This document shows positions 28,762 to 49,154 of a DNA stretch of 64,000 nt, one piece after another. The position numbers were made by a program, and so were the translations under genes. Within the stretch, counting starts at the first letter, position 1; every line of letters begins with the position of its first letter. The notes under the pieces are model-generated. The model was not told the origin of the DNA. It saw nothing but the letters and a program-made list of their open reading frames with translations, and did no database searches. Source of the stretch: a virus; the IMG/VR virus record IMGVR_UViG_3300036945_001058. One strand, written 5' to 3'.

Positions 28762-29457
28762 ATGTCAAACGTAAGAAGATATTTATCGAACGCACGTCAA
28801 AGTGCAATGGAATCTTTCTCAAATGCTGACGGATTCATCGACCAAGATTTGAGTTTCACTGGTGATGATTTCTTTAGAGCAGATGGGGGTATGGGTCAAC
28901 AAGATATTCAAACATCTCAACCCTACATAATCAACGTGACTTCTACATCAGGGTCAGCAGTTGCAAACTTTAGTGTACTTGGTTCTTTCCAATACATTAA
29001 CAATACAGGATTTGTTAATGGTTCATTAACCATTGGTTCTATTACAATTAGTTCAGGTATTCCTGACATCACTTATCAAGAGATGTTATATCAATTTATG
29101 AATAATCCTTATTCAGTTGGTTTAACTTACATTCAATCGGCTACTACAAATCAAGTTTTACAAACTTTGTCTGTAAACACGAGAGATGCGAATGGTAATT
29201 TAGCACAAAAAACTTTAGTACCTACTATTGACCCTTACCAACAACAAACCAATATTGTTGCGATGAAGTATGCTTACCGTATTGATGGTTTTACAAAAAT
29301 CATTATTGCTCAAGTATTAGCTAACGCTACTGTATCGTTATACTTCTACCCTGCTGATAACATCAACCTTTCGAGAGCATTGGGCGGTCAACCAGTAAGC
29401 AGACAATTCGGAACACCTCCTGTAACTAATGGACAAACCATCAAGTTAAGAGCGTAA
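28762..29457 (+). CDS. candidate major capsid protein (single jelly-roll-sized beta protein with acidic leader)
   Basis: Alternating beta-strand patterns; promoter upstream and strong terminator downstream; clear paralog at 48687; leader carries FSNADG and FFRADGG. Confidence 0.55.
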   Translation: MSNVRRYLSNARQSAMESFSNADGFIDQDLSFTGDDFFRADGGMGQQDIQTSQPYIINVTSTSGSAVANFSVLGSFQYINNTGFVNGSLTIGSITISSGIPDITYQEMLYQFMNNPYSVGLTYIQSATTNQVLQTLSVNTRDANGNLAQKTLVPTIDPYQQQTNIVAMKYAYRIDGFTKIIIAQVLANATVSLYFYPADNINLSRALGGQPVSRQFGTPPVTNGQTIKLRA

Positions 29458-29495
29458 TTATCGATAATGGTATAACGAATTAATGTATAATTTAG

Positions 29496-29535
29496 AAAAA
29501 GAGCAAGTTTGATTTATTTCTACTTGCTCTTTTTT
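29496..29535 (+). terminator. rho-independent terminator after the capsid candidate
   Basis: AAAAAGAGCAAGT...ACTTGCTCTTTTTT. Confidence 0.8.
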
Positions 29536-29552
29536 ATTTAAAATCAAAAATT

Positions 29553-29984
29553 ATGAACGTATATGAATATGTTGCGGATTCTAATCCAAGAGTAGCAGAA
29601 AAGATAATGAATTCATTTAATTATGACGCTATTAACAGTTCTGATATGGGATTAAGTCAATTAGTAAACAAGGTTGGAGAACCCGCTTTGCAAAAAATAA
29701 TGGAAAATCATCCAGATAAAGACATTATTTTAGAGTTATTCTCAAAAAAAGAAGATGAGAAAACTGATGGTTGCGGTTGTGATAGTTGTAAAAATAGAAA
29801 TAGAAGCAATGACGAACACCTTAATTATCTTAATGTAACTGGTAGTAATAAAGACGCTCCTGTTCCACCTTTAGCTAAGTCAAATGATTCTTCTACAAAC
29901 ACACATTTATTGGCAAACCAAACAAATGTTATTTTAGTGGTATCTGCATTGTTTATAGCGACTGCATTAATCTTAAAAAAATAA
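29553..29984 (+). CDS. membrane protein with CGCDSC motif and C-terminal TM
   Basis: CGCDSCK, YLNVTG, TM VILVVSALFIATALIL. Confidence 0.7.
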   Translation: MNVYEYVADSNPRVAEKIMNSFNYDAINSSDMGLSQLVNKVGEPALQKIMENHPDKDIILELFSKKEDEKTDGCGCDSCKNRNRSNDEHLNYLNVTGSNKDAPVPPLAKSNDSSTNTHLLANQTNVILVVSALFIATALILKK

Positions 29985-29989
29985 ATAAA

Positions 29990-30664
29990 ATGACAAAATT
30001 AAACGCAAATGCTCAAACTGGAGCATTAACATTGGTGTTACTTGTAAAATCATATAAACCCCAAATGATTGCTTTATTAGTTAAAAACGGAATAGTTGTT
30101 AATAATGATGCGTCAGACGAGCAAGTTGTTAAATTAATGGTTAACTTGTTGAAAGTTTCAAAGTCTTATTTTCAAGACCTGAATAACTTCGTAACAAACC
30201 CTGCCGTTGCAAATGTTATTGCTGGTGGTTTTGAACAAACAACTCAATATTTGAAAATGACTGGCGATGGTTATATGAATGTTGGTGGTTTTTTAGATTA
30301 CCAAATTCCTGATTCTCCTTTTGCAAATAGTTCAACAACAAATACTAGCTCTAAAACAGACACAGCTTCTTCTTCTTCTTTTTGGGGCGAGATGAAATCA
30401 AATATACCGAATTGGATAAGTGATGGAATTAAGCTGTTTGGAACAATAAGCACAAATAAAGCAAATGCTGAAATTGCAAATGCACAAGTTATAGTTGCAC
30501 AAAATGGTTCTGGAACAGGCGGAAACACAGACGGAAACACAGGCGGAAATGGAGGTAAAACACCTGATGAAGGAATGAGTACAACTTCAATTGTTTTATT
30601 GAGTTTACTTGGAGTTGCGGTATTAGGTACTGCAATATATTTTGTGGTAAAACAAAAAAAATAA
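29990..30664 (+). CDS. C-terminally anchored virion membrane protein
   Basis: YLKMTG and YMNVGG motifs, Gly/Asn linker, TM IVLLSLLGVAVLGTAIYFVV. Confidence 0.7.
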   Translation: MTKLNANAQTGALTLVLLVKSYKPQMIALLVKNGIVVNNDASDEQVVKLMVNLLKVSKSYFQDLNNFVTNPAVANVIAGGFEQTTQYLKMTGDGYMNVGGFLDYQIPDSPFANSSTTNTSSKTDTASSSSFWGEMKSNIPNWISDGIKLFGTISTNKANAEIANAQVIVAQNGSGTGGNTDGNTGGNGGKTPDEGMSTTSIVLLSLLGVAVLGTAIYFVVKQKK

Positions 30665-30679
30665 AAAAAAAATAGAGTT

Positions 30680-30907
30680 ATGCTTATAGACGAACAAATG
30701 TTATCAAAAATTATTGGAAGTTCTGTTGGTACTTATCCAAATAAAGTTGCTGGATTTCTTGTAAGTAATAAAATACTCGCACCTGCTCCGCAATACACCC
30801 TTGACCAATTGGTAGATGGTGTATTTCTTGGTTTAAATCAAAATCCAACCTTTACTCAAGAATATGGTTCTTGGTTGGAGCAAATTATAACTACATTAAC
30901 CTTTTAA
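30680..30907 (+). CDS. hypothetical helical protein
   Basis: 75 aa ORF with AAATAGAGTT-ATG context. Confidence 0.6.
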   Translation: MLIDEQMLSKIIGSSVGTYPNKVAGFLVSNKILAPAPQYTLDQLVDGVFLGLNQNPTFTQEYGSWLEQIITTLTF

Positions 30908-30918
30908 AAAATAATATT

Positions 30919-31236
30919 ATGGCTACTTGGGGAGATGTGTTAAAAGGTATTATACCGTCTTTAGTAGAGGGTGGAATAGGATTGTATGGAAACAAAAAAG
31001 CAAGTGATATAGCAAAACAACAAGCTAATGATGCAAAAGCTGTAGCTGAATTACAATATCAAACTGCTTTGGCAACCGAAAGAGCTAAAGCGTTAGAAAG
31101 AGCTAAAGCGTTAGAAAGTCAAGGCGGTGGAAAAACAACCGAAAAACCAAAAAGCAATACTGCTCTTTATATTGGATTAGGCGTTGGTGGATTAGTCTTG
31201 ATTGGTGCTGTAGTTTTTGCAGTTACAAGAAAATAA
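30919..31236 (+). CDS. membrane protein with Ala/Gln-rich coil and C-terminal TM
   Basis: Likely start is ATG 30919 (MATWGDVLKG); 18-nt ERAKAL repeat. Confidence 0.7.
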   Translation: MATWGDVLKGIIPSLVEGGIGLYGNKKASDIAKQQANDAKAVAELQYQTALATERAKALERAKALESQGGGKTTEKPKSNTALYIGLGVGGLVLIGAVVFAVTRK

Positions 31237-31254
31237 CATTAAAAAATATTTAGT

Positions 31255-31470
31255 ATGGAAAATTTTTTAGCACAAGCAAAAGACATAGTAAGTAAGGACA
31301 AAAGAGAAATTCTAATGATTACTACTCAAGCATCGGTAAACGGTGCGGTTACAGGACTTGTATTAGGTCTTATGGTTGGTTATTGGAAAAATAAAAATAT
31401 TTATGTTACAGGTCTTATAGGGGCTGTAATAGGAGGTGTTGCTACGAGTATTATTGTAAACAGAAAATAA
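31255..31470 (+). CDS. two-TM membrane protein
   Basis: GAVTGLVLGLMVGYW and TGLIGAVIGGVATSII. Confidence 0.7.
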   Translation: MENFLAQAKDIVSKDKREILMITTQASVNGAVTGLVLGLMVGYWKNKNIYVTGLIGAVIGGVATSIIVNRK

Positions 31471-31471
31471 A

Positions 31472-31582
31472 ATGAAAACACCAAACATTTTAACAGTAGT
31501 AATCGGATTAGCACTATCTTTAGGGGTGGTTTATAGTTATACTTATGTTATCGGGAAGTCTTGGAAAGCAAGTCAAAAATAA
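31472..31582 (+). CDS. small membrane protein (36 aa, not in track)
   Basis: MKTPNILTVVIGLALSLGVVYSYTYVIGKSWKASQK; paralog at 32577. Confidence 0.65.
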   Translation: MKTPNILTVVIGLALSLGVVYSYTYVIGKSWKASQK

Positions 31583-31603
31583 TAACAATTAAAAATAAAA
31601 AAA

Positions 31604-31741
31604 ATGGACAATAAAAAAATTTTAATGATAGGGTTATCGATTGTGGGTGTGTTAGCATTATTTGCTTATTTAAAACCAAAACCTAAAAGGAATTCAGAAG
31701 GGTTTTATGGAGCAAACGGAAAAAAACCAAGTGTTTATTAA
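31604..31741 (+). CDS. small membrane protein (45 aa, not in track), paralog of 16841..16981
   Basis: MDNKKILMIGLSIVGVLALFAYLKPKPKRNSEGFYGANGKKPSVY. Confidence 0.7.
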   Translation: MDNKKILMIGLSIVGVLALFAYLKPKPKRNSEGFYGANGKKPSVY

Positions 31742-31781
31742 AAAAAAAAAGAAAGTATCAATAATTAAAAACAAAAAAAAA

Positions 31782-32114
31782 ATGGAATTACTAAAAGACA
31801 AAAAAGTATTAATAGCATTAGGACTATTAGTTTTAGGTGGCGGATTTCTTTATTTAAGAAGTAAAAAAGCGAAAGAAGATGTTTTATCAACAGGTGCTGT
31901 AGCAGGTACTCCTCCAAAAAACAATTACGCTATAAAAGAAGAAGGAAAAGATGGGGTATGGTTGGTTTCAGACGGTACAAAATATGCATTTTCAAGCATA
32001 GATTCTTATAAAAACTATGGCTCTCCAACTGTTACACATGTTACAAAATCAGAATTAGATTTGATACCAACTATAGGATGGGTAAATTTAAAAGGAGAGC
32101 TTGTGAAAAATTAA
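31782..32114 (+). CDS. anchored surface protein A
   Basis: Likely start is ATG 31782; first 31 aa identical to the next gene. Confidence 0.75.
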   Translation: MELLKDKKVLIALGLLVLGGGFLYLRSKKAKEDVLSTGAVAGTPPKNNYAIKEEGKDGVWLVSDGTKYAFSSIDSYKNYGSPTVTHVTKSELDLIPTIGWVNLKGELVKN

Positions 32115-32132
32115 TAATTAAAAACAAAAAAA

Positions 32133-32558
32133 ATGGAATTACTAAAAGACAAAAAAGTATTAATAGCATTAGGACTATTGGTTTTAGGTGGCGGATTTCT
32201 TTATTTAAGAAGTAAAAAAGCGAAAGAGAATCTTTTTAAGAATTCAACGACGAGTAATAATACAGGCGGTAATTCAACAGCAACTAATGAAACAGGTGAG
32301 GTAGATAAAAACCTTAAGAGTTATACTTGGTCTTATAATAGCGGTGATACTAATTCTATTGCATGTTCTCAAGGCGCAGGACAATCACTTTATAGTAAAA
32401 ATGACACTATGGTAGCTGGAGATACGGTATATACTGATTCAAAAGGTCTTTCTGTTTTTAATGGAAAAAATGCTTATTGGAAAAAATATACTGGAATTGT
32501 AAACCAAACTATGCAAATAAATGATAAAGGAGTGGTTGGTAATGTTTCAAACTGTTAA
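32133..32558 (+). CDS. anchored surface protein B with Cys-closed beta domain
   Basis: Same anchor; AC...GDTVYTD...FNG...Y...I...G.V...C domain. Confidence 0.75.
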   Translation: MELLKDKKVLIALGLLVLGGGFLYLRSKKAKENLFKNSTTSNNTGGNSTATNETGEVDKNLKSYTWSYNSGDTNSIACSQGAGQSLYSKNDTMVAGDTVYTDSKGLSVFNGKNAYWKKYTGIVNQTMQINDKGVVGNVSNC

Positions 32559-32576
32559 TTAGTAAAAATAAAAGAA

Positions 32577-32711
32577 ATGGACATTTTTTATGACGACAAT
32601 AAAAAGCCAAGTACAGTAAGTAATTTGGTTTATATCGGAACGTCAGCGTTAGTTGTGTTCGGATTGGTTTATCTTGTGGGTCGTGCTTGGAAAAAAAGCC
32701 AAACTGCATAG
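32577..32711 (+). CDS. small membrane protein (44 aa, not in track)
   Basis: ...LVYIGTSALVVFGLVYLVGRAWKKSQTA. Confidence 0.65.
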   Translation: MDIFYDDNKKPSTVSNLVYIGTSALVVFGLVYLVGRAWKKSQTA

Positions 32712-32726
32712 GTGTTGAAATTAGTA

Positions 32727-32758
32727 AGGTAGGTTATTTAGATAGCCTACCTATTTTT
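32727..32758 (+). terminator. rho-independent terminator
   Basis: AGGTAGGTTAT-ttag-ATAGCCTACCT then ATTTTT. Confidence 0.65.
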
Positions 32759-32862
32759 AAAAATAAAAAACTATTATAAAAAAAATATCGCTTTTTATGG
32801 TTCTTGTAGATGTAAATAAAATTAATTAATTAGATAAGGCGAACCATAAATAAAATTGGCTT

Positions 32863-33018
32863 ATGGAAACTAAAAAAATCATAGGAATAGTAATGTTAGG
32901 TGCTTCGGTAGGGTTGATTGTTTATCTCTATAAAGGGTATTTAAAACCAAGACTTGAAGTTGATGCTCAAATATTAGCGGGTGCAACTTCTCCAACAACA
33001 ATAACAACAAAAAAATAA
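32863..33018 (+). CDS. small membrane protein (51 aa, not in track)
   Basis: METKKIIGIVMLGASVGLIVYLYKGYL... Confidence 0.6.
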   Translation: METKKIIGIVMLGASVGLIVYLYKGYLKPRLEVDAQILAGATSPTTITTKK

Positions 33019-33023
33019 AAAAT

Positions 33024-33356
33024 ATGGAAACACAAGTAAAAAGTGCAAATCGTTTGTGGCGAGAAAGCGGAACTTCACTAAGTTTTGCTGAATGGATTCA
33101 ACGTGAAAAAGACAAAAGTAATTTTGTAATGAACAAAAAGTTTGAAAATTTTTCAAACGTAGATGGGATTTTAAATAATAACACTTGGATACAAGATAGT
33201 ATTGCTAAAGCAAAAATAGATTTAGGAATAGATGTTCCTAAAGTAAATAAAAAGCCAAATGACACTTTTGTAGGCTTAAATAAAACTTTTATACTGTTTT
33301 CAGTGTTAATCGTTGTGGGAGCAATTGGCTATAAAATTTACAAAAAAAATAATTAG
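33024..33356 (+). CDS. C-terminally anchored protein with FSNVDG motif
   Basis: ENFSNVDG; TM FILFSVLIVVGAIGY. Confidence 0.7.
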   Translation: METQVKSANRLWRESGTSLSFAEWIQREKDKSNFVMNKKFENFSNVDGILNNNTWIQDSIAKAKIDLGIDVPKVNKKPNDTFVGLNKTFILFSVLIVVGAIGYKIYKKNN

Positions 33357-33357
33357 G

Positions 33358-34143
33358 ATGAATTTAAGGTTAGATACAAGATTTGAAGAAATGTGCTTGG
33401 TAGTTAAAGTTGGAGTGACAATGCCTACTAAAGTCAGAATTAAAATTTTTGATGAGCAAAAACCTAAAATTGTTTTTACGGACAGGTATAAAACAGTTAA
33501 CTCTGATTATACTTTTTTTGTACGTATGCCAATTACGTCTAAAAGTGTTATAATTTCAGTATATGACGATATAAAAGGTAACACACCTCAAAGTCAAGAC
33601 AATAATGTAAAAGTAGTTTCGGTTGATAAAACACCGTTAAAAAAGAGAATTGATGTGGTTGATATTCATAATCCAACTATCGCTTATTTTGTAGATTTTG
33701 CACAAAGATTTTGCTTTAATGCGCCTTATTTAGAGGCAAATAAATCTTATCAATCAGACAATGGTGGATTTATGATTGAGTACTTACCAACTATTATAGA
33801 TTCAAAAGGAAAAGAACTTACAACACCCGCTAGAATTTCAAGAATGACAGGGCGTATTCAAGTCTCTAAAAAACAATTTGATGAATACACTATTCCAATG
33901 CGTTTTGCGATTCTTTGCCACGAGTTTAGTCATTTTTACGTCAACGAAGATATGGGGGACGAAAGCGAAGCAGATTTAAACGGACTATTGATTTATTTAG
34001 GTCTTGGTTATCCGAGAATTGAAGCTTGTGAAGCTTTTTTAGAAGTTTTCGAACACTATCCAAGCCAAGAGAACAAAATGCGTTATGATAAGATTAAAAA
34101 CTTTATCGACAACTTTGAGAAAGATAATATTGTATTCAAATAA
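33358..34143 (+). CDS. zincin metalloprotease (HExxH plus downstream ExxAD)
   Basis: Likely start is ATG 33358; FAILCHEFSH...DESEADLNG. Confidence 0.7.
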   Translation: MNLRLDTRFEEMCLVVKVGVTMPTKVRIKIFDEQKPKIVFTDRYKTVNSDYTFFVRMPITSKSVIISVYDDIKGNTPQSQDNNVKVVSVDKTPLKKRIDVVDIHNPTIAYFVDFAQRFCFNAPYLEANKSYQSDNGGFMIEYLPTIIDSKGKELTTPARISRMTGRIQVSKKQFDEYTIPMRFAILCHEFSHFYVNEDMGDESEADLNGLLIYLGLGYPRIEACEAFLEVFEHYPSQENKMRYDKIKNFIDNFEKDNIVFK

Positions 34144-34153
34144 AAATAGAATA

Positions 34154-34714
34154 ATGATGATTACAAAAAAAGCAAGAGCACCTTTAGAATATTTGGAACA
34201 AATAGAAGACTTTGTACCTGTGACTATTCAAACAAGAGGTAATGAATATTATAAACCTGTAGAACGACTTGAGGACGAGCTATTAATACTTGAAACTAAA
34301 TATCCTAAACCAGTAAAACAAGGTGTTTCTATAATTTTACCTGACCACGTGCCTTTAGAAGATTTGGAAAAAATAGAAGACTTTGTGCCTGTGACCATTC
34401 AAACAAGCAGTAATGAATATCCTAAACCTGTAGAACAAGGTGTTTCTATAATTTTACCTGACCCATTGCCTTCGGAAGATTTGGGAAAAATAAAAGACAC
34501 AGCACCTGTGAATATTGAAACAAGCAGTAATGAATATCCTAAACCTGTAGAGCAAAATTCTATAGATATTCCTGTTGAATATTCGAAAAGAGATTTTCAA
34601 ACAAATAGCAATACAATCGTTTCTGTTATCAACAAAAATAAAAATTTACTAATGATAGCAGGTGCTTTTTTAGTAGGATATATTATATTCAGCAATAGTA
34701 AATCGTCTAATTAA
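34154..34714 (+). CDS. repetitive Pro/Glu-rich protein with C-terminal TM
   Basis: About three imperfect units of (E)DFVPVTIQTxxNEYPKPVE; TM LLMIAGAFLVGYIIF. Confidence 0.65.
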   Translation: MMITKKARAPLEYLEQIEDFVPVTIQTRGNEYYKPVERLEDELLILETKYPKPVKQGVSIILPDHVPLEDLEKIEDFVPVTIQTSSNEYPKPVEQGVSIILPDPLPSEDLGKIKDTAPVNIETSSNEYPKPVEQNSIDIPVEYSKRDFQTNSNTIVSVINKNKNLLMIAGAFLVGYIIFSNSKSSN

Positions 34715-34725
34715 AAATAGAAATT

Positions 34726-35448
34726 ATGGCAACTAAACCCATTAATGTAAATAAGGCTTTAACCCTAGTTTATTTCAATAATTTAATTCTTGGAGAATTA
34801 AGAAAAAACGGAATTAAATCTTGGATTGCAGGGGGTGTTTTGAGAGATTATTTTTCAGATAGACCGCTTAAGTCAGATTGTGATATTTTCTTTCCAAGCC
34901 TTTCGGAATTTGAAAAAACTAAAGATTATTTTATTTCCAAAGGAGGTAAAATAATTTGGCAAAGTGAAAATGGTATGAAAGTCACTTACAAAGGAAATAC
35001 TTTTGACTTGATAAAAATATTCACGCCTAATCCAATGGCTACTATTGGTCGGTTTGATTTTACAATTTCAATGTTTGCTACTGATGGTAGCGAGGTTTAT
35101 TATGGTAATAATTCGCTTAAAGACCTACAAGACAGGAAATTGGTAATAAATACGATTGTAAATCCCTTAAGCACACTAAAAAGAGTTTTAAAGCACTACA
35201 AAAAAGGCTTTACTATGTCTGCCGAAGAAACTAAAAAATTATATACTTCTTTAAACAATCTCCCTTATGATAATTCAGATGATTTGCTTAATGCAAATGG
35301 AACGTCAGGGGGTGGAGTTAAAGAAACTGTAATTGTAACAAAAGACGCTCCAATCGTTCCTGTTCCTCTTGACAATACGAAACATATCTTGATTGGGGTT
35401 GTTACTATTTTAGCTGTGTATGTGTTTTATAATGAATTTAGCAAATAA
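34726..35448 (+). CDS. poly(A) polymerase/CCA-type nucleotidyltransferase head domain with C-terminal TM
   Basis: WIAGGVLRD...SDCDIFF, FDLIK, RFDFTISM; LLNANG linker then TM ILIGVVTILAVYVFY. Confidence 0.75.
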   Translation: MATKPINVNKALTLVYFNNLILGELRKNGIKSWIAGGVLRDYFSDRPLKSDCDIFFPSLSEFEKTKDYFISKGGKIIWQSENGMKVTYKGNTFDLIKIFTPNPMATIGRFDFTISMFATDGSEVYYGNNSLKDLQDRKLVINTIVNPLSTLKRVLKHYKKGFTMSAEETKKLYTSLNNLPYDNSDDLLNANGTSGGGVKETVIVTKDAPIVPVPLDNTKHILIGVVTILAVYVFYNEFSK

Positions 35449-35477
35449 CCGATGATTAAAAATAAATTTTAGAAATT

Positions 35478-35819
35478 ATGAATTTAGGCGCAAAACAAAA
35501 AAAGTATTTAATAATTGGTGGTGTATTAGTTTTGGGAATTTTTATAATTAACAAATGGCTACATAGTTTTCCAAAACCTGAAAATCCAGATTTAGATACA
35601 ACAACTTTAGACCTAGAAAAAGTTCTTAAAAACGGGGTGCAAGGCAATGAAGTCGCAGAACTCCAAAGAGTTTTATTAAAAGACTATTCGGCTAACTTAG
35701 GATATACTGGAAGTAATAAAGACGGTGTTGATGGAGATTTCGGAATCTTAACCGAAGTTGCTTTAAAAAAGGCAAAAGGAGTAAAGGAAATAGCATTAAA
35801 AGATTTAAAAAATGGGTAA
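35478..35819 (+). CDS. membrane-anchored peptidoglycan-binding domain protein
   Basis: LKNGVQGNEVAELQRVL...DGDFGILTEVAL (PG_binding_1 pattern). Confidence 0.75.
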   Translation: MNLGAKQKKYLIIGGVLVLGIFIINKWLHSFPKPENPDLDTTTLDLEKVLKNGVQGNEVAELQRVLLKDYSANLGYTGSNKDGVDGDFGILTEVALKKAKGVKEIALKDLKNG

Positions 35820-35973
35820 AGGTTATTATATAGTAGGAGCTGTTTTAGTTGGCGTTGGAGTATTTTTACTTTACAACAAAATTAAAAATGGAAATGTAAA
35901 TTTCAATACAACAAGCGAAAATTTTATACAGGAAGAAGAAGGAAGTCATTTAAGTCCTCCGATGGAAGTTTAA
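35812..35973 (+). CDS. small membrane protein (53 aa, not in track)
   Basis: MGKGYYIVGAVLVGVGVFLLYNKI... Confidence 0.6.
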   Translation: MGKGYYIVGAVLVGVGVFLLYNKIKNGNVNFNTTSENFIQEEEGSHLSPPMEV

Positions 35974-36013
35974 CGACAATTTATCATTAAAAAACGTAAT
36001 AAATAATTTAATT

Positions 36014-36340
36014 ATGCAAAATAAAACAAAAATACAAATCGCTTCTGTAGGTCTAATTTTATTAGGTCTTTATTATTTTTATAAACAAAAAGAACAGAAG
36101 GCAGAGATTACTGAAGAAGATGTTTCTGCTAACCCTCAAATCATAAAAAATGATTATGATAAAGTTTTGAAAAAAGGTTCTACGGGTAGAGAAGTAGAAA
36201 TGCTTCAAAAAGCATTAAAAACATTAGTTGCTGATGGGAATTTTGGTAATTTAACAGAGGCAAGGCTTAAAAAGGTAATGGGAGTAACAGAAACATCAAT
36301 AAATAAGTATAATCAGTTTATTAAAAACAAACAAAAATGA
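36014..36340 (+). CDS. second membrane-anchored peptidoglycan-binding domain protein
   Basis: LKKGSTGREVEMLQKAL...DGNFGNLTEARL. Confidence 0.75.
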   Translation: MQNKTKIQIASVGLILLGLYYFYKQKEQKAEITEEDVSANPQIIKNDYDKVLKKGSTGREVEMLQKALKTLVADGNFGNLTEARLKKVMGVTETSINKYNQFIKNKQK

Positions 36341-36870
36341 TAAATAGAAACGTAATAATAATAGGAAGTCTTGCTTTGTTGGGAGTGGGTGCTTATATCT
36401 ACTTTAAACCGAAAGCAAGTAGTAAGGTAGTAGGAGATACTAATCTTGGCGGTAAAAATACAGAAACTACTAATCCGACAGATAATTCAGGTCAAGGTTC
36501 TTTAGACAATACTATTGTACAAACAAAAGACCCTGTAACCAATGAACCTCTAAAAAATCCGATTGTAAAAACATTGACTAATACAGATATTTTGGCAATT
36601 CAAAAATTAAGAGATGATATATTGAGTGATATGAATAAGATGCCTAATTTAAAAAAACAAAGCTCACGTAACAACGTACAAGCTAATATTAACTTACTGT
36701 TTGGCAGATTACAAACCTATGGATACAGTTTAGACACAAATAATAATTTGATTAAAATCGTAGCAAACGATTCTGGAGAAGATGTTTATAAATATAACGG
36801 AACAAAAAGCTCTGCTGTTCCAAAAATAATTAAAACTATTACACTTCCAATAAGTAGGTTGTTTAGATAG
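36337..36870 (+). CDS. N-terminally anchored membrane protein
   Basis: IIIGSLALLGVGAYIYF. Confidence 0.7.
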   Translation: MINRNVIIIGSLALLGVGAYIYFKPKASSKVVGDTNLGGKNTETTNPTDNSGQGSLDNTIVQTKDPVTNEPLKNPIVKTLTNTDILAIQKLRDDILSDMNKMPNLKKQSSRNNVQANINLLFGRLQTYGYSLDTNNNLIKIVANDSGEDVYKYNGTKSSAVPKIIKTITLPISRLFR

Positions 36871-36894
36871 AAAATTAATAACTAAAATAAAAAT

Positions 36895-37329
36895 ATGGCA
36901 CAGATAAAATGGGATACCGTACCTGATTACGACCAATGGGGAGTTGATTCTTTTTGGAATTGTGAAGATTGGATTAGTTGGCATAAAAAATTAGCAGAGC
37001 ATTTTGGTAAAGAAACCGCTAATGAAATTTGGGATTATGCCTATGCAAAATCAGGAAGCTTGAGTTCTAATCTTGATTGTCGCACATTTAACTCTGTTTT
37101 CAGAGAATATGTAAATAAAAACGGATTGTCTCCGTATGCCAACGCAGGTATATTTGCTCCAGTTTTATCAGGTTACGGAACGGCAAGTGACGTATTAAGT
37201 GGTACTTTATCTGGAGTATCTTCTTTTTTTGAATCAGAAAATGTAAAAAAAATAATAAATATTATTTTAATTGGAGGTTTTATTTTTGGCGGAGTTTATA
37301 TTTATAAATCTGTAAAAAAACAACAGTAA
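36895..37329 (+). CDS. Trp-rich protein with C-terminal TM
   Basis: W-rich N-terminal domain; TM IILIGGFIFGGVYIY. Confidence 0.7.
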   Translation: MAQIKWDTVPDYDQWGVDSFWNCEDWISWHKKLAEHFGKETANEIWDYAYAKSGSLSSNLDCRTFNSVFREYVNKNGLSPYANAGIFAPVLSGYGTASDVLSGTLSGVSSFFESENVKKIINIILIGGFIFGGVYIYKSVKKQQ

Positions 37330-37493
37330 TGAAAGACAATAAATTAGTAATAATAGCAACCACGTCTGTAATAATTGCAGGAATACTCTATTTTGCGATT
37401 AAAAAAGCAAATAAAAAAAATATAGACACTGACCCCAAATTAAAATCAGATTATGATTTGGTAATGAAAAATATTGAAAAGGCAAAAAAGTAA
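37329..37493 (+). CDS. small membrane protein (54 aa, not in track)
   Basis: MKDNKLVIIATTSVIIAGILYFAIKK... Confidence 0.6.
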   Translation: MKDNKLVIIATTSVIIAGILYFAIKKANKKNIDTDPKLKSDYDLVMKNIEKAKK

Positions 37494-37497
37494 AATT

Positions 37498-38064
37498 ATG
37501 AACAGCGATAAAAAAATGTACTTGTATTCAGGATTGGCAATAGTAGGAGCTTTAGTTGCCTATGTTATTATTACAAAGAAAAAACCATCACCTACTGATA
37601 GCGAGGGTACTGGAACTACTGATACCGAAACAACTGTTGCAGTATCTACAACAGGAGAGGTTATTGACCAAAGTCAAGTTATCATACCTGTCGATTTAGC
37701 TAATATTTTAAAGAAAACTTCGGCACAAGCAACTGCTCTTTTAATAAACAAGCCTATTTATTCAAAATTAGATAACGTTAAGGTTAGAATGGATAATTTT
37801 GTAAATAACGGTGTCGTTAATAATATTATGTCAACGATAAATAATAAAGGAACTCTTTTAGGAAACGTTATACAGGTGGTTGACGATAAAGGTAAATTGA
37901 CTAATCCCGAAGGTAAAATTTACAAATGGTTTAAAATTAAACCTTCTCAAGTAGCTTTGGACGATATGAATAAGAATAGAGATTTTCTTACCCGTTTATT
38001 CCTGCCAAGCACTACTGGGGGTGTGTTTTATGTTAGAGAAGATACCGTAAGACTGGATAAATAA
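37498..38064 (+). CDS. N-terminally anchored protein, possible SH3-like C-terminal domain
   Basis: Likely start is ATG 37498; TM then VKVR...WFKI...YVREDTV. Confidence 0.65.
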   Translation: MNSDKKMYLYSGLAIVGALVAYVIITKKKPSPTDSEGTGTTDTETTVAVSTTGEVIDQSQVIIPVDLANILKKTSAQATALLINKPIYSKLDNVKVRMDNFVNNGVVNNIMSTINNKGTLLGNVIQVVDDKGKLTNPEGKIYKWFKIKPSQVALDDMNKNRDFLTRLFLPSTTGGVFYVREDTVRLDK

Positions 38065-38102
38065 TTGTTAGAAAATTAACTATCAAATAAAAACAATCGC
38101 TT

Positions 38103-38249
38103 ATGAAAAGCTATATTGAAGGCGGTACAACCCCTGATTCTAAGATTGTAATAAATAAACCAAAGCCTAATTATACCAAAATTGGTATCATAGGTCTTAT
38201 CGGAGTATATGTAATTTACAAAGTGGTTTTTAATAAAAAAAGTAAATAA
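38103..38249 (+). CDS. small membrane protein starting MKSYIEGG (48 aa, not in track)
   Basis: MKSYIEGGTTPDSKIVINKPKPNYTKIGIIGLIGVYVIYKVVFNKKSK. Confidence 0.6.
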   Translation: MKSYIEGGTTPDSKIVINKPKPNYTKIGIIGLIGVYVIYKVVFNKKSK

Positions 38250-38250
38250 A

Positions 38251-38619
38251 ATGGAAATAAATTCGTCCACAATTTTTCAAAAACAAAGTAAAATTGTTTT
38301 AAAAATAGTTGCAATTGCTACTGTAGTTACAGCTCTAGGTGGGGCTTATTTCTTTTTCATTAATAATATTTGGAAGCCAAAAGTGAAAGTTTTAAGCGTA
38401 GATTTTACAAATGGATTTGCGACTGTTGAAACTAATTTTGGAAAAAAAATCAATATTTATGGAGACTCACAATATTTAATAACTGGCGAATGGGGAATTA
38501 AGTTTGGAACTGTGAACAAAGGGGGTAAATTGTCATACGAAAATTTACAACTGCTAAAACACGGCTTGGTTGATGAATATTTAGACACATCTCAATTCAC
38601 AAATAAAAAAAACAATTAA
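38251..38619 (+). CDS. membrane protein with small beta domain
   Basis: TM IVAIATVVTALGGAYFFFI. Confidence 0.7.
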   Translation: MEINSSTIFQKQSKIVLKIVAIATVVTALGGAYFFFINNIWKPKVKVLSVDFTNGFATVETNFGKKINIYGDSQYLITGEWGIKFGTVNKGGKLSYENLQLLKHGLVDEYLDTSQFTNKKNN

Positions 38620-38621
38620 TT

Positions 38622-38837
38622 ATGAATTATACAGATATAGGCTCTAAAGCAGGCTTAATATACGATGTTGATGAAGATATAAGGTTAGGTAATTTTGCAA
38701 ATAAACTTAACAAGGAAACGAACAAAGCAGACATTGAGGAGTCGAAAAAAAAAGATATAATTAGATATACTATTATTAGTATAGGAGCTATATTGATTTT
38801 AGTAGCTGTACAATTTTTAGTAAAAAAAAGAAAATAG
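38622..38837 (+). CDS. small C-terminally anchored protein
   Basis: TM YTIISIGAILILVAVQFLV. Confidence 0.7.
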   Translation: MNYTDIGSKAGLIYDVDEDIRLGNFANKLNKETNKADIEESKKKDIIRYTIISIGAILILVAVQFLVKKRK

Positions 38838-39405: not shown

Positions 39406-39412
39406 TAAAAAA

Positions 39413-40348
39413 ATGAGTGCTTTAAAAACAGTTGGTGTTATTGGTGCAATTAGCGGTGTGGGGTTGATAGGGTTTTATTTATTCAATAAATATAAGCCGA
39501 CAATTGCAGAAACACAAATAGATGAATTAAAGGGCGAAGGATATGTGCTTAAAGTTGACAAACCAGAACATCGTAAGATATGGAGTATTGTTGCTCAATA
39601 TGGATATGATAATTTAGGTAAAAATCAATCGTATATTGACTTAAAAAAGCAATTGATAGAGCAAAAAAACCTAGTCATAACTAATGAACAATTTAATAAT
39701 CTTGAACGATTTATTGTTGATATGAATAAAAAAGGTGTTTTTGAAAAAATTGTTGGAGCAGAACTCGCAAAAATTAACAGTCAAAACTTTTGGTTTGAAA
39801 AAAGAACTAAAGGAATTGGTGATGACGTTTTTGATGCTGACAAATCGTTGGTTTCGTTTAACAAAGTTGTTAATTGTGAATATAAAACAGGAGAAAAAAA
39901 CCCTTGTACATACGATTATATCCCATTCAAAGGTAAGGACTATTGGCGTTACGCCTCTAACGAGAGCACGCCTTATTTTTGGAGTACACCTTATCCTTCA
40001 GGTAAAGATATACGAATAGTTTCAGACGATTGTGTAGAGTTAGATTTAGCAATGAAACGAATAACCGATAGAATTGCAGAACAAACAAGGACTAAGCCCA
40101 ACGAAGACAATAGACAGGTTTTGCTTTGGTATAAAGACATACTTGAAGATTATTTTAGATTTAATAGTTGTGGAGACAAAATAACAAAACAAAGATTTTT
40201 GGACTTTGGAAAAAACACAGCTTTAAGTGTTATCACATCAGAAAAAAGTGTTCTAGGAGCAAGCCAAAAGAATCAAAATATTTATTTAGGAATAGGAGCG
40301 TTAGTTTTAATATTAAGTGCAGGAATGTTAACGAGTGGAAAAGATTAA
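39413..40348 (+). CDS. membrane protein anchored at both ends
   Basis: Hydrophobic N- and C-termini. Confidence 0.7.
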   Translation: MSALKTVGVIGAISGVGLIGFYLFNKYKPTIAETQIDELKGEGYVLKVDKPEHRKIWSIVAQYGYDNLGKNQSYIDLKKQLIEQKNLVITNEQFNNLERFIVDMNKKGVFEKIVGAELAKINSQNFWFEKRTKGIGDDVFDADKSLVSFNKVVNCEYKTGEKNPCTYDYIPFKGKDYWRYASNESTPYFWSTPYPSGKDIRIVSDDCVELDLAMKRITDRIAEQTRTKPNEDNRQVLLWYKDILEDYFRFNSCGDKITKQRFLDFGKNTALSVITSEKSVLGASQKNQNIYLGIGALVLILSAGMLTSGKD

Positions 40349-44191: not shown

Positions 44192-45010
44192 ATGAAAAAG
44201 ATTTTTTTTAATTCCTCCCTACCCCGTGCTGGGTCAACGTTAATTTCCAATTTAATTGCTCAAAACCCAGATTTTTATTGCACCCCTACCTCTGGACTAG
44301 CGGATTTGATATTAAACGCAAAAAACACTTATGCTCATTCACAAGCAATTTTAGCTCAAGACAAAATAGTTATGGAAAACGCTTTTTTGGGGTTTTGCAG
44401 AGCTGGTATGCAAGGTTTTTTTAATAACATTACCACAAAAGAATTTATTTTAGACAAAAGCAGAGAATGGAGTATTCACTATAACCTTTTAAATATGCTA
44501 AACGAAAACCCTAAAATCGTTTGTATGGTTAGAGATGTTCGTTCTGTTTATTCTTCAATGGAAAAAAACTTCCGAAAAAATCCACATAGGGAAAATCACA
44601 TTCAAAATGCACCGCAGTTAGTCGGCACTACATTAGATAAAAGAATAAATATTTGGGCAGATGGAATACCAGTTGGTGTTTCAATGGACAGATTAAAAGA
44701 CTGCATTCAGCAAGGTATAGCAAAAAAAATGTTGTTTATAAGGTATGAAGATTTAATGGTAAACCCAGAAATCGAAATGAAGCGTTTGTACGAGTATTTA
44801 GGCTTACCTTACTACGAAGCACACGATTTTGAAAATGTATCTCAATTAACCCACGAAAACGACCTTGTTCACGGTATCTACGGCGACCATACGTTAAGGC
44901 ACAAGTTTGAAATGAAACCAGACGACTATTATGATGTTTTAGGGTATGAATTATCCAATAAAATTAAGAATACCTATAAGTGGTTTTACGACTATTTCGG
45001 ATACGTTTAA
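44192..45010 (+). CDS. sulfotransferase
   Basis: SSLPRAGSTL (5'-PSB loop), DKSREW, MVRDVRSVYSS (3'-PB). Confidence 0.85.
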   Translation: MKKIFFNSSLPRAGSTLISNLIAQNPDFYCTPTSGLADLILNAKNTYAHSQAILAQDKIVMENAFLGFCRAGMQGFFNNITTKEFILDKSREWSIHYNLLNMLNENPKIVCMVRDVRSVYSSMEKNFRKNPHRENHIQNAPQLVGTTLDKRINIWADGIPVGVSMDRLKDCIQQGIAKKMLFIRYEDLMVNPEIEMKRLYEYLGLPYYEAHDFENVSQLTHENDLVHGIYGDHTLRHKFEMKPDDYYDVLGYELSNKIKNTYKWFYDYFGYV

Positions 45011-45017
45011 TATTTAT

Positions 45018-45779
45018 ATGATTTTTTTATTTACAGGGCAACCCCACGCAGGTAAGACAACATTAGCTAGATATTTACACTCTTTTTTATTAGAAAACTC
45101 AATAAAAAATACATTTTTAATCGATGGAGATGATTTGAGAAAAATAAATAATAATAAAGATTATTCGGAGCAAGGGCGTAGAAGCAACATAACCCAAGCG
45201 TTCTCAATAGCAAAATATTTAGATTCTTTAAACCACGATGCAATTATAGCTTTAGTTTCTCCTTACAAAGATATGAGGGAAGAACTAAAAGCAAATTCAA
45301 ACGTAGTTGAAGTTTATGTACACACTACAGAAAGAAGAGGTAGAGAGGGTTTTCACGTTGAAAATTATGAACCACCTACTGAAAACTACATCAATATAGA
45401 TACTACTGATGTAGATGAATTATCGTCTATGAACGAACTATTTAATCACATTCAAAAATTCATTAAAATGCCACCAGAAAAAAACGAGTTAAGCAAGTTA
45501 GATTCCGTTCAAAAATTCATCCTCGAAGGTAGAGAAGTCGTGCTGAAAAAAGAAGATGAAACTTCTTTTGTCCGCATATATAACAACAATTCAGCCACGC
45601 AATCTTCTGAAAAATGGTTGTTAATCATAAATGGTAATAAGTTTCATACAAGTGAAGTAAATATAAACTGCCGAACAAGAACCTTTACAGGTAAATTTGA
45701 AGATATGGATATTGAAAATCACATAGTTTGCGATGCAAATGAAGTAAAATTCAAAAACAACATAGCTACTATAATCTAA
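45018..45779 (+). CDS. cysC: adenylyl-sulfate kinase with C-terminal extra domain
   Basis: Likely start is ATG 45018; FTGQPHAGKTT, LIDGDDLR, DYSEQGRRSNI, LVSPY, YEPP. Confidence 0.8.
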   Translation: MIFLFTGQPHAGKTTLARYLHSFLLENSIKNTFLIDGDDLRKINNNKDYSEQGRRSNITQAFSIAKYLDSLNHDAIIALVSPYKDMREELKANSNVVEVYVHTTERRGREGFHVENYEPPTENYINIDTTDVDELSSMNELFNHIQKFIKMPPEKNELSKLDSVQKFILEGREVVLKKEDETSFVRIYNNNSATQSSEKWLLIINGNKFHTSEVNINCRTRTFTGKFEDMDIENHIVCDANEVKFKNNIATII

Positions 45780-46185: not shown

Positions 46186-47061
46186 ATGTCAACAATAATA
46201 TTTTCTATCGAGGGTGGTCTTGGAAAGTCAATAATGGCTACCGCAGTATTAAAAGCAATTAAAAAACAATATAAAAAGTCAAATATCATTGTTATTACTG
46301 CTTATCCCGATGTTTTTATCGCTAATCCAAACGTGAATAAAGTTTTAAAATTCGACCAGTTAAACGGAATTTACGAAAAAAACATTATGAATAATAAAGA
46401 CTGTAAAGTTTTTGTTGCAGACCCTTACCATACTTCGGATTTCATCACAGAAAGTAAACATCTGATTCAAATTTGGTGTGAAATGTATGGTGTAAAATAT
46501 GATGGCGAAATGCCAGAATTGTTTTTGCTTAAAGCAGAAAAAGAATACTTTGAGCCTTTTTACAGATTGGATAAGCCTATTATGGCAATTCAACCAAACG
46601 GAGGTGCGATAAATCAACCTTTAAAATATTCTTGGACAAGAGATATTCCTGCTCCAATAGTAGAGGAAGTGATTGAGTGCTTTAAAAACGATTACGCTAT
46701 TTTGCATATAAAAAGGGAAGACCAAATAGCATATCCAAACACACTTCAAGCCCTTGATAACTTCAGAAGTATTGCGGTTTTATTAATTATGTCGAAAAAA
46801 AGATTATTGATTGATAGTAGTGCAATGCACATAGCGACTGCTTTGAATTTACCTTCAAATGTTGCTTGGATAGGTACAAATCCTAAAGTTTTTGGTTACG
46901 ATATTCATACAAATATTGTTGCGAACCAACCGACCAGAGAGCTTGATTTAAACCACTCACATTATCAAAAACATTTGTTGTTTCAAGATATTAGCACAAT
47001 TCCTTATAATGATTTAAGCGAAGTTTTTGATAAAAAATTGATAATTAATTCTTTGAAATAA
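46186..47061 (+). CDS. glycosyltransferase, GT9-like
   Basis: EGGLGKSIMATAVLKAIKKQY, IDSSAMHIATAL. Confidence 0.75.
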   Translation: MSTIIFSIEGGLGKSIMATAVLKAIKKQYKKSNIIVITAYPDVFIANPNVNKVLKFDQLNGIYEKNIMNNKDCKVFVADPYHTSDFITESKHLIQIWCEMYGVKYDGEMPELFLLKAEKEYFEPFYRLDKPIMAIQPNGGAINQPLKYSWTRDIPAPIVEEVIECFKNDYAILHIKREDQIAYPNTLQALDNFRSIAVLLIMSKKRLLIDSSAMHIATALNLPSNVAWIGTNPKVFGYDIHTNIVANQPTRELDLNHSHYQKHLLFQDISTIPYNDLSEVFDKKLIINSLK

Positions 47062-47117
47062 TTATTCAAAGAATTAATTTTGTAATATTGCTATATTTAT
47101 AAAAATTAAGTGGTAAA

Positions 47118-47621
47118 ATGGAGGATTTAGAATTAACAGATACAATAAGGCAAGGAATTGTTTTTAAAGCGGACGGTTCAAACTTTATGGAGCAACTAGA
47201 GTGTATTGAAAATTTGTTAATTAGCAGTAATTCATCAGATATAATTATAGGCAATTCAGACGAGTTGCCTTTAACTCATTCTTTTTCTGATGGCATATAT
47301 GTCAGAGAGATTTTTATTCCAAAAGGAATGTTTGCAATTGGAAAGGTTCATAAACTGAATCACACTTTCTTTTTAATGAAAGGAAAAATGCTGTTGTATA
47401 GCGAAAGAGGTGTAGAGGAGATTGAAGCTCCTTATTATGGAAATTCAAGTGCGGGAACAAAAAGACTTGTTGTCGCTTTAGAAGATATGGTCTTTGTAAA
47501 TGTATTTCCAAATCCAAACAATATAAAGGAAGTAGACAAATTAGAAGATATATTTTATGCTTCTTCTTATGAAGATTTTCAGAATTATAAATCGTTAAAA
47601 AAACAATTATGTCAGGAATAG
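47118..47621 (+). CDS. cupin-fold protein
   Basis: HSFSDGIYVREIFIP...GKVHKLNH...GTKR. Confidence 0.7.
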   Translation: MEDLELTDTIRQGIVFKADGSNFMEQLECIENLLISSNSSDIIIGNSDELPLTHSFSDGIYVREIFIPKGMFAIGKVHKLNHTFFLMKGKMLLYSERGVEEIEAPYYGNSSAGTKRLVVALEDMVFVNVFPNPNNIKEVDKLEDIFYASSYEDFQNYKSLKKQLCQE

Positions 47622-47956
47622 CGGTAGCAGGGATAGCTGTGTCGGTTGGAATGGGTTTTTTTTCTGCGGAATCAGCAAAAAAACAGTCTGAAAAACAAAT
47701 GGCTCAATTATGGAATCAAGAAACTATGAAAATAGCTTCTCAAGAAAAACTTTTTCTGGAGCAAATTCGCACTGAAAACGAAACAGAGCTTATCAAAATA
47801 TTTTCAGAAGATATGTTGAAATATCGAGAAGCTTTACAAAAAGAAAGTACAATTAGACTTCGTGATACTTGGATTTATGTCGCTGGTCTTGGTGCTGGGA
47901 CAAGTGCTATATACGCCGTTTCTTTAATGTATTCCAAATCAAAAACAAATGGATAG
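47609..47956 (+). CDS. virion membrane protein (Gly/Ala-rich N-terminus)
   Basis: MSGIAVAGIAVSVGMG; C-terminal hydrophobic segment. Confidence 0.65.
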   Translation: MSGIAVAGIAVSVGMGFFSAESAKKQSEKQMAQLWNQETMKIASQEKLFLEQIRTENETELIKIFSEDMLKYREALQKESTIRLRDTWIYVAGLGAGTSAIYAVSLMYSKSKTNG

Positions 47957-48338
47957 TATTTTTTTTAATGTTGGAGGTGAAAGCGTAGCAAGTGGTAGTA
48001 CTAGCGGAATAGCTGGGTATAGCGATGTAATTAAGATTGTTGCCGATTTAGGGATTCAGTATTTGTACGCTAAAAAAGAAAAAAAAAAATACGAAGAGTT
48101 AATCCAACGAATAAGCGAGCTTAATACTCAAGAAAAGGAAAAGTTAAAAAAACTTTTAGAAAAGTCTCTAAATGAAGTTGCTAAAACGCAAGTGATAATT
48201 GAATTTCTTAACGAAAAAAAAATAAATGATTTAGAAGCTGAAACTAAAAAAAAGAGAATTGTATCTTTAATTGCGTTAGGCATTGGGGTAATTATAATGG
48301 GATTAATGTTTTATAAATTAAATAAGCAAAATGGATAA
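47949..48338 (+). CDS. membrane protein starting MDSIFFNVGG
   Basis: FFNVGG motif; C-terminal TM. Confidence 0.7.
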   Translation: MDSIFFNVGGESVASGSTSGIAGYSDVIKIVADLGIQYLYAKKEKKKYEELIQRISELNTQEKEKLKKLLEKSLNEVAKTQVIIEFLNEKKINDLEAETKKKRIVSLIALGIGVIIMGLMFYKLNKQNG

Positions 48339-48684
48339 AGAAACGAAGACGGTTATAGTGTCAATTGGAATTGCATTAGTAATTCTTTGGATTTTTAAAC
48401 CAAAAAACAGCACTAATAGCGACTCTAAAACAGACGATGTGTTAGTCGATAAGTATCAAGCACCTAGATTAGTTGCTGAAGATGAAAAAAAATTAAAAGA
48501 CGAAGCAGTGGTTGGATTAAAAGCAATGCGTGAAGCTATTAATAACGGAGAGTCGGCAAGGGAATTAGATAAACTGAAAAATGTAATTTTACAAGAAAAC
48601 AGCATCAAGATTATGATTTCTAAAAAAACCAAGAAGTTAAGAGCGATGGATAAAAAAGGAGAAGTAATTGCTGAAGAAGAATAG
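48331..48684 (+). CDS. N-terminally anchored protein
   Basis: VIVSIGIALVILWIF. Confidence 0.7.
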   Translation: MDKETKTVIVSIGIALVILWIFKPKNSTNSDSKTDDVLVDKYQAPRLVAEDEKKLKDEAVVGLKAMREAINNGESARELDKLKNVILQENSIKIMISKKTKKLRAMDKKGEVIAEEE

Positions 48685-48686
48685 TT

Positions 48687-49154
48687 ATGGCGGGTTTGTA
48701 TGCACCAGTAGTTACTTCATATCCAAAAGGAGTATTTTCAATAACAAGCAACAAAGGAACTCCATACCCTTTGATACAAGAGTCTATGGGTAGTTACCAA
48801 TACCGTATAGATGAAATTTATTTACAAGCAAATACGGCACAACAATTATTTCAGCCTATAAGCTTTAGGAGTTATGATGCTAATGGAACTGTAAATATTG
48901 TTGTAGATGTTATAACTATCAATCCTTATCAGAAACAAAACTCACTTTTTATAAAGCCTGTAAATAAAAATCTAATTCTCGATGGGCGTACATCTATAAA
49001 GTTTGATTTACTACCAAATGAAGAACAAAACATGGTCTTTTTTACTACCGAACAGTCAAATGATTACGGTTTAAAAGAACCAAATTTCTTTGACGATTAT
49101 TTTTTTAAACAACAACAAGACGATTTTTTTAATGGGTTTGTCGAGCAAGTTTAA
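48687..49154 (+). CDS. paralog of the capsid candidate (minor or second capsid protein)
   Basis: YLQANTAQQLFQ...DANG...TINPYQKQ...LDGRTSI aligns with YIQSATTNQVLQ...DANG...TIDPYQQQ...IDGFTKI. Confidence 0.65.
   Translation: MAGLYAPVVTSYPKGVFSITSNKGTPYPLIQESMGSYQYRIDEIYLQANTAQQLFQPISFRSYDANGTVNIVVDVITINPYQKQNSLFIKPVNKNLILDGRTSIKFDLLPNEEQNMVFFTTEQSNDYGLKEPNFFDDYFFKQQQDDFFNGFVEQV

Follow-up and report, generated by a model that had tools for sequence, protein, structure and literature searches.

Two paralogous jelly-roll proteins, a predicted coat and a predicted vertex-linked protein, in a large uncultured virus

When one virus encodes two related capsid-like proteins in genes about 20 kilobases (kb) apart, do both build the shell, does one of them, or does neither? 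We addressed this question for a 64-kb window of the IMG/VR record IMGVR_UViG_3300036945_001058, which derives from an uncultured virus; the window is the whole stretch of DNA that was analysed, and all positions refer to it. The two genes in question are:

28762-29457, + strand: P0001, the long form, 231 amino acids (aa); proposed major capsid protein
48687-49154, + strand: P0002, the short form, 155 aa; proposed vertex or spike-base protein

On balance, and by a modest degree, we favour the reading that P0001 is the major single jelly-roll coat protein of a very large tailless-type virus and that P0002 is its vertex-linked minor paralogue.

Two related jelly-roll proteins

The initial annotation of this DNA had pointed to an alignment between two open reading frames (ORFs) some 20 kb apart, each long enough for only one jelly roll. 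Both ORFs were recovered on the + strand with starts 19,925 nucleotides (nt) apart, and the alignment proved to be real. BLASTP aligned residues 91-202 of P0001 with residues 16-125 of P0002 at 36 identities in 116 positions (31%, expectation value (E) 6e-9), and the alignment spans the blocks DANG, T-I-[DN]-P-Y-Q and DG-x-T that had been quoted. A hidden Markov model built from relatives of P0002 alone matched P0001 at E 1e-13 as the sole other protein of the window, and the model built from relatives of P0001 alone matched P0002 at E 4e-9. Comparison of the two family alignments with hhalign gave 96.3% probability, and a joint alignment of 20 sequences contained 17 invariant columns. That is, these comparisons identify P0001 and P0002 as true paralogues. 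A profile search of the window proteins found exactly these two members of the jelly-roll family, with no further member or tandem.

AlphaFold models were calculated from input alignments of about 105 sequences. For P0001, the mean predicted local distance difference test (pLDDT) value was 83, with 94-98 across residues 50-200. The modelled chain starts with a helix (residues 2-20; 1-20 helical), continues with a disordered leader (21-49) that is acidic and aromatic and carries two A-D-G motifs, and then forms the jelly-roll core (50-200) and a tail (201-231). Within the core the order is B, C, helix, D to I, as expected for a jelly roll of eight strands in which a helix separates C from D. 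The P0002 model (pLDDT 79.5) comprises a beta-sandwich core at about residues 20-125 without the N-terminal extension. According to these models, both proteins are single-domain jelly-roll-type beta-sandwiches. Their confident cores hold one jelly roll each, as had been expected from their lengths, and a non-jelly-roll fold did not arise: the models and all structural matches were jelly rolls.

Structure searches singled out no specific nearest capsid family for either protein. With Foldseek, P0001 had no match in the PDB at E <= 0.001; the weak rows at E of about 2e-3 were all jelly rolls and included TNF/C1q, cowpea mosaic virus (CPMV), picornavirus VP3, satellite tobacco mosaic virus (STMV) and carbohydrate-binding modules. 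The P0002 model returned generic beta-sandwich rows only. In the ESM Atlas, a feature search with P0001 gave no usable match and a shape search only generic sandwiches (TM <=0.37). P23-77 VP16/VP17 and SH1-type VP4/VP7 were not among the 50 rows listed for either VIA-align search, which does not speak against a likeness to them. Neither protein matched Pfam; in PHROGs, P0002 was unmatched and P0001 had only three weak rows of unknown function (E 0.026 or worse). A tblastn search of 50,697 phage records with P0001, P0002 and the ATPase described below yielded zero matches. A complex prediction for the P0001 core with P0002 scored 0.00, which counts neither for nor against pairing.

Among metagenomic proteins the family is large. 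The joint profile found 718 proteins at E <= 0.001 among 1.84 billion representatives (at 50% identity), and these fall into two architectures. The short one (about 150 aa) has the domain at the N-terminus, followed by an acidic/aromatic C-terminal tail; variants carry a C-terminal membrane anchor, leucine-rich distal domains or fusions to further domains (P0227, P0295 and P0163). The long one (about 220-250 aa) consists of a leader (helix plus two conserved A-D-G motifs), an invariant T-S-Q-P-Y-I, a beta-hairpin, the shared core and a conserved Y-P-x-D-N-I-N-L tail. Both architectures contain the motif D-D-[FY]-F, which is acidic/aromatic in character: at 28864-28875, N-terminal to the P0001 jelly roll, and twice in the P0002 C-terminal tail (49092-49130). 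It is possibly a docking peptide for a common partner.

Seven other large contigs were examined, among them one of 132 kb from the bin of a Sediminibacterium metagenome-assembled genome (MAG) and one of 102 kb from that of a Flavobacteriales MAG. Six of the seven encode a long and a short member on the same strand, 17-38 kb apart, and the remaining contig (77 kb) encodes the long form alone. Tandem fusions of two long-type units also exist (P0156, 397 aa; P0212, 411 aa). One of the six, the collinear 102-kb relative G001 (L041), has three extra leaderless long-type members at 17225-18418, 6650-7174 and 14648-15112 of its own sequence, in its left arm and upstream of its window-matching part. 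The first of these is a 397-aa tandem, whose halves share about 38% identity with P0001 and 34% with each other. It may capture a single jelly roll on the way to a double one.

The long form and the packaging-type ATPase

P0001 stands out by its conservation. The window and G001 share 59 ortholog pairs, among which P0001 ranks first with 94.8% identity; the corresponding values are 60.6% for P0002, 53% for the ATPase and 45% for the spike-like neighbour of P0002. In metagenomic protein sets P0001 is represented by >1500 clusters at 90% identity, the best 120 of which are 81-95% identical to it. The gene lies among the following features:

24393-25208, + strand: FtsK/HerA-superfamily ATPase, candidate genome-packaging enzyme, 271 aa, with Walker A motif GRKGCGKT from residue 13
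28384-28406: terminator-like hairpin, 5' of the promoter-like site of P0001
28512-28540, + strand: promoter-like site (TTGACA, 17 nt, AATAAT), 11 of 12 consensus positions in a consensus scan
28581-28706, + strand: membrane ORF from the ORF list, 41 aa, single-pass, between the ATPase and the coat gene
29495-29539, + strand: terminator-like hairpin plus T run, 14-bp stem, -18.7 kcal/mol, z -5.4
29553-29984, + strand: 143-aa protein with C-terminal membrane anchor, conserved downstream neighbour of the coat gene

An FtsK-type ATPase had been named as the companion of capsid proteins with one jelly roll, and such a gene is indeed present at 24393-25208 and linked to the long form. In Pfam its product matched DUF87/HerA above the cut-off (25.3 bits) and Zot and TrwB weakly, in PHROGs it matched phrog_2666 ('terminase large subunit', E 3e-9), and its look-alike clusters in the Atlas come from viruses and contain Zot, DUF87 or Pox_A32. 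By these matches it is a candidate packaging ATPase. In all 41 related loci with enough upstream DNA, it lies 5' of the P0001 ortholog in the same orientation. In divergent genomes (coat 39-75% identical) the gap between both genes measures 312-500 nt and contains one tiny membrane ORF. L057, whose long form is 40% identical, illustrates this order: ATPase, a 33-aa membrane ORF, long form and, immediately 3' of it, the membrane-anchored counterpart of the 143-aa protein, corresponding to the window genes at 24393, 28581, 28762 and 29553.

In the window, insertions have widened the gap to 3.5 kb: an HNH endonuclease gene on the opposite strand, a gene of NlpC/P60-like type, two membrane and coiled-coil genes and a local duplication. 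The endonuclease (25221-26390, - strand) is of the homing type, and a NUMOD4/AP2 endonuclease in the early region (55545-56120, - strand) has its best G001 match in the gene beside the ATPase of G001. Mobile endonucleases seem to have enlarged the gap. The duplication left a scar at 28089-28349. Its first part (28089-28212) copies 28737-28860 at 91%, that is, the end of the P0001 5' untranslated region and the first 33 codons, and its second part (28214-28349) copies 27926-28061 at 82%, the 3' part of the ORF at 27643-28086. Jointly, both copies form a chimeric 79-aa ORF (28114-28353). G001 lacks the scar.

RNA-library contigs of relatives from four metatranscriptome studies cover 28535-29556 and thereby just the P0001 unit. 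They begin at 28535-28600 and stop at 29503-29556, and in one run they end in adapter sequence at 28600 and 29503. These contigs weakly hint at an abundant monocistronic P0001 messenger RNA. Gaps in RNA-contig cover within 20000-39999 carry no weight as evidence of silence, and RNA depth peaks at 24.0-24.7 kb and 31.3-32.0 kb were rejected as expression signals, being A-rich poly-A artefacts.

A small FtsK/HerA ATPase together with a jelly-roll gene is described as the morphogenetic signature of tailless jelly-roll viruses in PMC8328091. Since P0001 combines the top conservation with its own transcription signals, linkage to the ATPase in 41 of 41 loci and this known pairing, we singled it out as the putative coat protein.

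Several further genes nearby deserve mention. A 276-aa protein with an H-E-x-x-H motif (33313-34143) is the second most conserved (93% versus G001), and almost every related locus encodes it 2.5-8 kb 3' of the coat gene. Although unmatched in Pfam and PHROGs, it may be a zinc protease acting in maturation. The motif [FYL]-x-[NSG]-[AV]-[DTNG]-G, a pattern picked post hoc, occurs seven times in the ORFs of the window versus 1.7 +/- 1.3 times in shuffles, an enrichment that is suggestive at most. It is located in the P0001 leader (28762-29457) and in the membrane-anchored neighbours at 29553-29984, 29990-30664, 33024-33356 and 47949-48338, and may be a shared processing site. Two genes 5' of the ATPase, with a 236-aa ORF in between, 22451-23545 encodes a strongly acidic, low-complexity protein of 364 aa that ends in a basic tail. 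It matches no family, and its character is that of a scaffold or DNA-binding protein.

The short form and the spike-like block

The surroundings of P0002 differ from those of P0001 and comprise:

48331-48684, + strand: membrane protein, 117 aa, conserved upstream neighbour of the short form
49132-49611, + strand: LRAT/NlpC-P60-type enzyme with C-terminal membrane anchor, overlapping the P0002 end; Pfam LRAT 24.6 bits, above the cut-off
49614-50801, + strand: spike-like protein, 395 aa; Pfam NHL, SBBP and Vgb_lyase

The spike-like protein combines a conserved N-domain of about 115 aa (49614-49970) with a variable NHL/SBBP beta-propeller as distal part. A block recurs in three further genomes, in the order glycosyltransferase-like gene, small membrane ORFs (three), short form, LRAT-like membrane enzyme (usually present) and large protein; in G007, the divergent fourth genome, the short form is instead part of a fusion of 320 aa. 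An LRAT-like gene follows the short form in three of the four other genomes examined. Only the first ~110 residues of the large protein are conserved, at total lengths of 395 aa here versus 397, 491 and 747 aa in the relatives. As far as sequence comparison can tell, a conserved N-domain with a variable distal part is the pattern of a host-recognition spike with an anchoring domain.

Elsewhere, the N-domain of the spike-like protein is fused to short-form jelly rolls (P0295, E 7e-6; P0227, E 3e-5; P0163, E 7e-4), which suggests that the short form and the spike N-domain act together. Because of this synteny and these fusions we read P0002, which forms 25 clusters in metagenomic protein sets and ends in an acidic/aromatic C-terminal tail, as a predicted vertex or spike-base protein; this is an inference by analogy. 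In PRD1 the vertex is formed by the penton protein P31, a single jelly roll, with the spike proteins P5 and P2, and in PM2 protein P1 is a penton base fused to a spike. The major capsid protein (MCP) of both viruses is a double jelly roll and unrelated in sequence to the penton. P31 with P5, and the fused P1, provide the analogy for the synteny and fusions of P0002 with the spike-like protein, which would fit a small jelly roll that carries the receptor-binding spike. Unlike in PRD1 and PM2, the presumed major protein here is a single jelly roll and is paralogous to the presumed vertex protein. A double jelly-roll MCP, as in the Bamfordvirae, carries two jelly rolls in one chain; here, the most conserved, ATPase-linked member is single-domain, and tandem doubles of 397 and 411 aa occur only as accessory or other-lineage forms.

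Just 5' of the short-form/spike block lie genes for a sulfotransferase (44192-45010), an APS kinase (44946-45779) and a glycosyltransferase-like protein (46186-47061), the last of which is conserved at the same position in relatives. The set hints at a sulfated glycan modification of the virion or the host surface. The P-loop gene at 44946 was considered as packaging ATPase and rejected, being the APS kinase beside the sulfotransferase. Gene 46186, which has a weak ResIII P-loop match, looks glycosyltransferase-like and has no PDB sequence match.

The two proteins in the virion

In the reading we favour, the window would encode a particle-building module on the plan of tailless, internal-membrane viruses. 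P0001 would be the shell subunit, in which a helix and an acidic, aromatic leader precede a single jelly roll. It would be transcribed as its own unit, 3' of the packaging ATPase and a tiny membrane protein, and its leader may be removed or tucked inside. P0002 would be an old duplicate of P0001's jelly roll that became specialised as a minor virion protein; located at the vertex base, it would carry the variable host-recognition spike encoded two genes 3' (49614-50801). The virion would have a membrane.

The window is part of a freshwater virus of about 100 kb or more. According to the metagenomic protein record of P0002, the contig that contains it measures 117,987 bp (~118 kb). The window has a G+C content of 30%, and nearly all of its genes lie on the + strand up to ~50.8 kb, followed by a minus-strand block. 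Database matches are very sparse across this virus. The larger ORFs of the window and of the left arm of G001 were scanned, each against Pfam, PHROGs or both. Besides polyvalent-protein ADP-ribosyltransferase domains and a MoxR-type AAA+ protein, these scans revealed glycosyltransferases, a sulfotransferase, APS kinase, PAP2, lysis-type enzymes, RecT, an exonuclease, methyltransferases and homing endonucleases, and no head, portal or tail family. Profiles of Terminase_6N, TerL_ATPase, Terminase_6C, Phage_capsid and Phage_portal had zero matches in five related contigs of 77-102 kb, and control genomes responded. The missing tailed-phage families are consistent with a tailless virus, short of proof.

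The contigs that carry the coat gene (L051-L059) were binned in unrelated MAGs (Sediminibacterium, Flavobacteriales, Ignavibacteria, Planktophila, Bathyarchaeia, Gammaproteobacteria, Opitutia and Legionellales). Since the bins span unrelated taxa and the contigs are probably mis-binned viral sequences, assigning a host from them is unsafe.

Several points weigh against P0001 as coat and P0002 as vertex protein. The best rows of a Foldseek search of BFVD with P0001 are C1q/TNF-like heads of phage fibres (E of about 1e-4), and given these rows the modelled fold could possibly belong to a non-capsid jelly roll. The capsid role of P0001, the vertex position of P0002, the fate of the leader and the virion membrane are all inferred from genes. 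The RNA runs had been selected using the P0001 gene and their contigs were assembled, so they cannot rank expression. The ATPase is oddly divergent between the window and G001. Divergent HK97-fold and double jelly-roll capsid proteins often escape Pfam. As the window covers 64 kb of a ~118-kb genome, another capsid gene may lie in the other ~54 kb, and the related contigs are 'linear' records with possibly unreliable completeness estimates.

Among the alternatives, the one that fares best builds on these points, and we still consider it unlikely: the family would be non-shell virion proteins, either trimeric C1q/TNF-like receptor-binding heads or membrane-associated proteins, and the true capsid protein would be an unrecognised, divergent HK97-fold or double jelly-roll ORF in the window or in the unseen half. 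Here, the top rows in BFVD belong to fibre and collagen-repeat proteins that bear C1q-like heads, the PDB rows include TNF and C1q, family members exist with membrane anchors and receptor-type distal domains, several paralogues occur within G001, and the part of the contig outside the window would offer room for such a gene. However, C1q/TNF fibre heads are jelly rolls that end a collagen, coiled-coil or fibre stalk, an arrangement seen neither in P0001 nor in P0002; instead of a stalk, collagen or coiled coil, P0001 has a helix and a disordered acidic leader. Moreover, among phage proteins those that bind receptors normally vary the most, whereas P0001 is the most conserved protein, its invariable place by the packaging ATPase fits a capsid gene, and the five related contigs are without tailed-phage hallmarks.

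The closest known design is that of single beta-barrel, two-coat-protein viruses with an internal membrane, such as the Thermus phages P23-77 and IN93 and SH1-like viruses (PMC6356626). Like this group, the present virus would use one jelly roll per shell protein and more than one jelly-roll protein per virus, and the predicted folds of P0001 and P0002 both show the single jelly-roll core. It also shares the small FtsK/HerA-family ATPase gene just 5' of the coat gene, at the sequence level and with a putative packaging role, as well as many small membrane proteins. A sequence match or specific structural match to the proteins of the group was not obtained. The group (Helvetiavirae / Halopanivirales) includes P23-77 with the coat pair VP16/VP17 and the haloarchaeal viruses SH1, HHIV-2 (VP4/VP7) and HCIV-1, with genomes of 17-31 kb. 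In contrast, the genomes considered here measure ~77-132 kb, far above known single jelly-roll viruses, in line with the earlier proposal of a much larger lineage. The coat genes of the group are adjacent and both encode major proteins; here they are 17-38 kb apart and unequal, the pair is still alignable in sequence, and P0001 has a conserved leader.

A second known system is SSIP-1 (L047), which infects a Bacteroidota host; this tailless phage contains a membrane and has two types of coat protein (PMC6356626). Its gp43 (~2319 aa, 26863-33822), encoded beside small structural proteins, parallels the giant proteins of the window (2009 aa at 2803-8832 and 1774 aa at 9475-14799). Unlike the present virus, SSIP-1 has a genome two to three times smaller, and the profiles of the two jelly-roll families gave nothing significant against its proteins (best E 0.66).

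That P0001 and P0002 are co-major proteins which form mixed pseudo-hexameric capsomers, like VP16/VP17 of P23-77 and VP4/VP7 of SH1/HHIV-2, appears more doubtful still. Two single jelly-roll proteins plus an FtsK/HerA-type ATPase would suit it, one long and one short member are the conserved complement of most related genomes, and the tandem fusions P0156 and P0212 demonstrate that family units can sit side by side. But these natural tandems pair two long-type units, not a long with a short one. In every genome with both forms the short form lies 17-38 kb off, unlike the block of ATPase, small MCP and large MCP in the P23-77/SH1 group. The two proteins are also unequally conserved (95% versus 61%), and both synteny and gene fusions link the short form to a spike-like protein that is variable. 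The initial annotation had proposed a single jelly-roll lineage or a major/minor pair; the spacing, the unequal conservation and the spike link favour the major/minor pair and disfavour co-equal major proteins as in P23-77/SH1.

Least probable of all, in our view very improbable, is an element without an icosahedral shell, membrane-vesicle-type or plasmid-like, with the jelly rolls in another abundant structural role: its numerous small membrane proteins, giant multi-domain proteins, glycan-modifying enzymes and few matches to known virus families would suit such an element, but IMG/VR classifies ~40 related contigs as viral, the lysis-type enzymes, RecT, homing endonucleases and methyltransferases are a typical phage gene set, and the pairing of a small HerA/FtsK-type ATPase with a jelly-roll gene is the morphogenetic hallmark of tailless viruses (PMC8328091).

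With P0001 as predicted coat and P0002 as predicted vertex-linked protein, a wider and more tentative picture emerges, which we would not yet call probable. The family may represent the coat of very abundant, undescribed tailless membrane-containing bacterial viruses of 80-130 kb, mostly from freshwater, with large single jelly-roll shells, with coat and vertex proteins that are duplicates of one gene, and with tandems (397-411 aa) that show the step from single to double jelly rolls. Our search of the literature, incomplete in its coverage, found no description of this lineage. Known bacterial and archaeal jelly-roll viruses with an FtsK/HerA motor have genomes of ~10-45 kb; if the picture is true, genomes of 80-130 kb within a coat of single jelly rolls would stretch this known design several-fold. 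The coat family appears to be common in lakes, as judged from the >1500 clusters for the coat alone, and provides a marker gene for a virus group that is unrecognised by Pfam, PHROGs and reference phages. That the presumed coat and vertex proteins can still be aligned, and that natural tandem fusions exist, is a rare combination; it bears on the old question of how a single ancestral barrel gave rise to double jelly-roll capsid proteins and to penton proteins.

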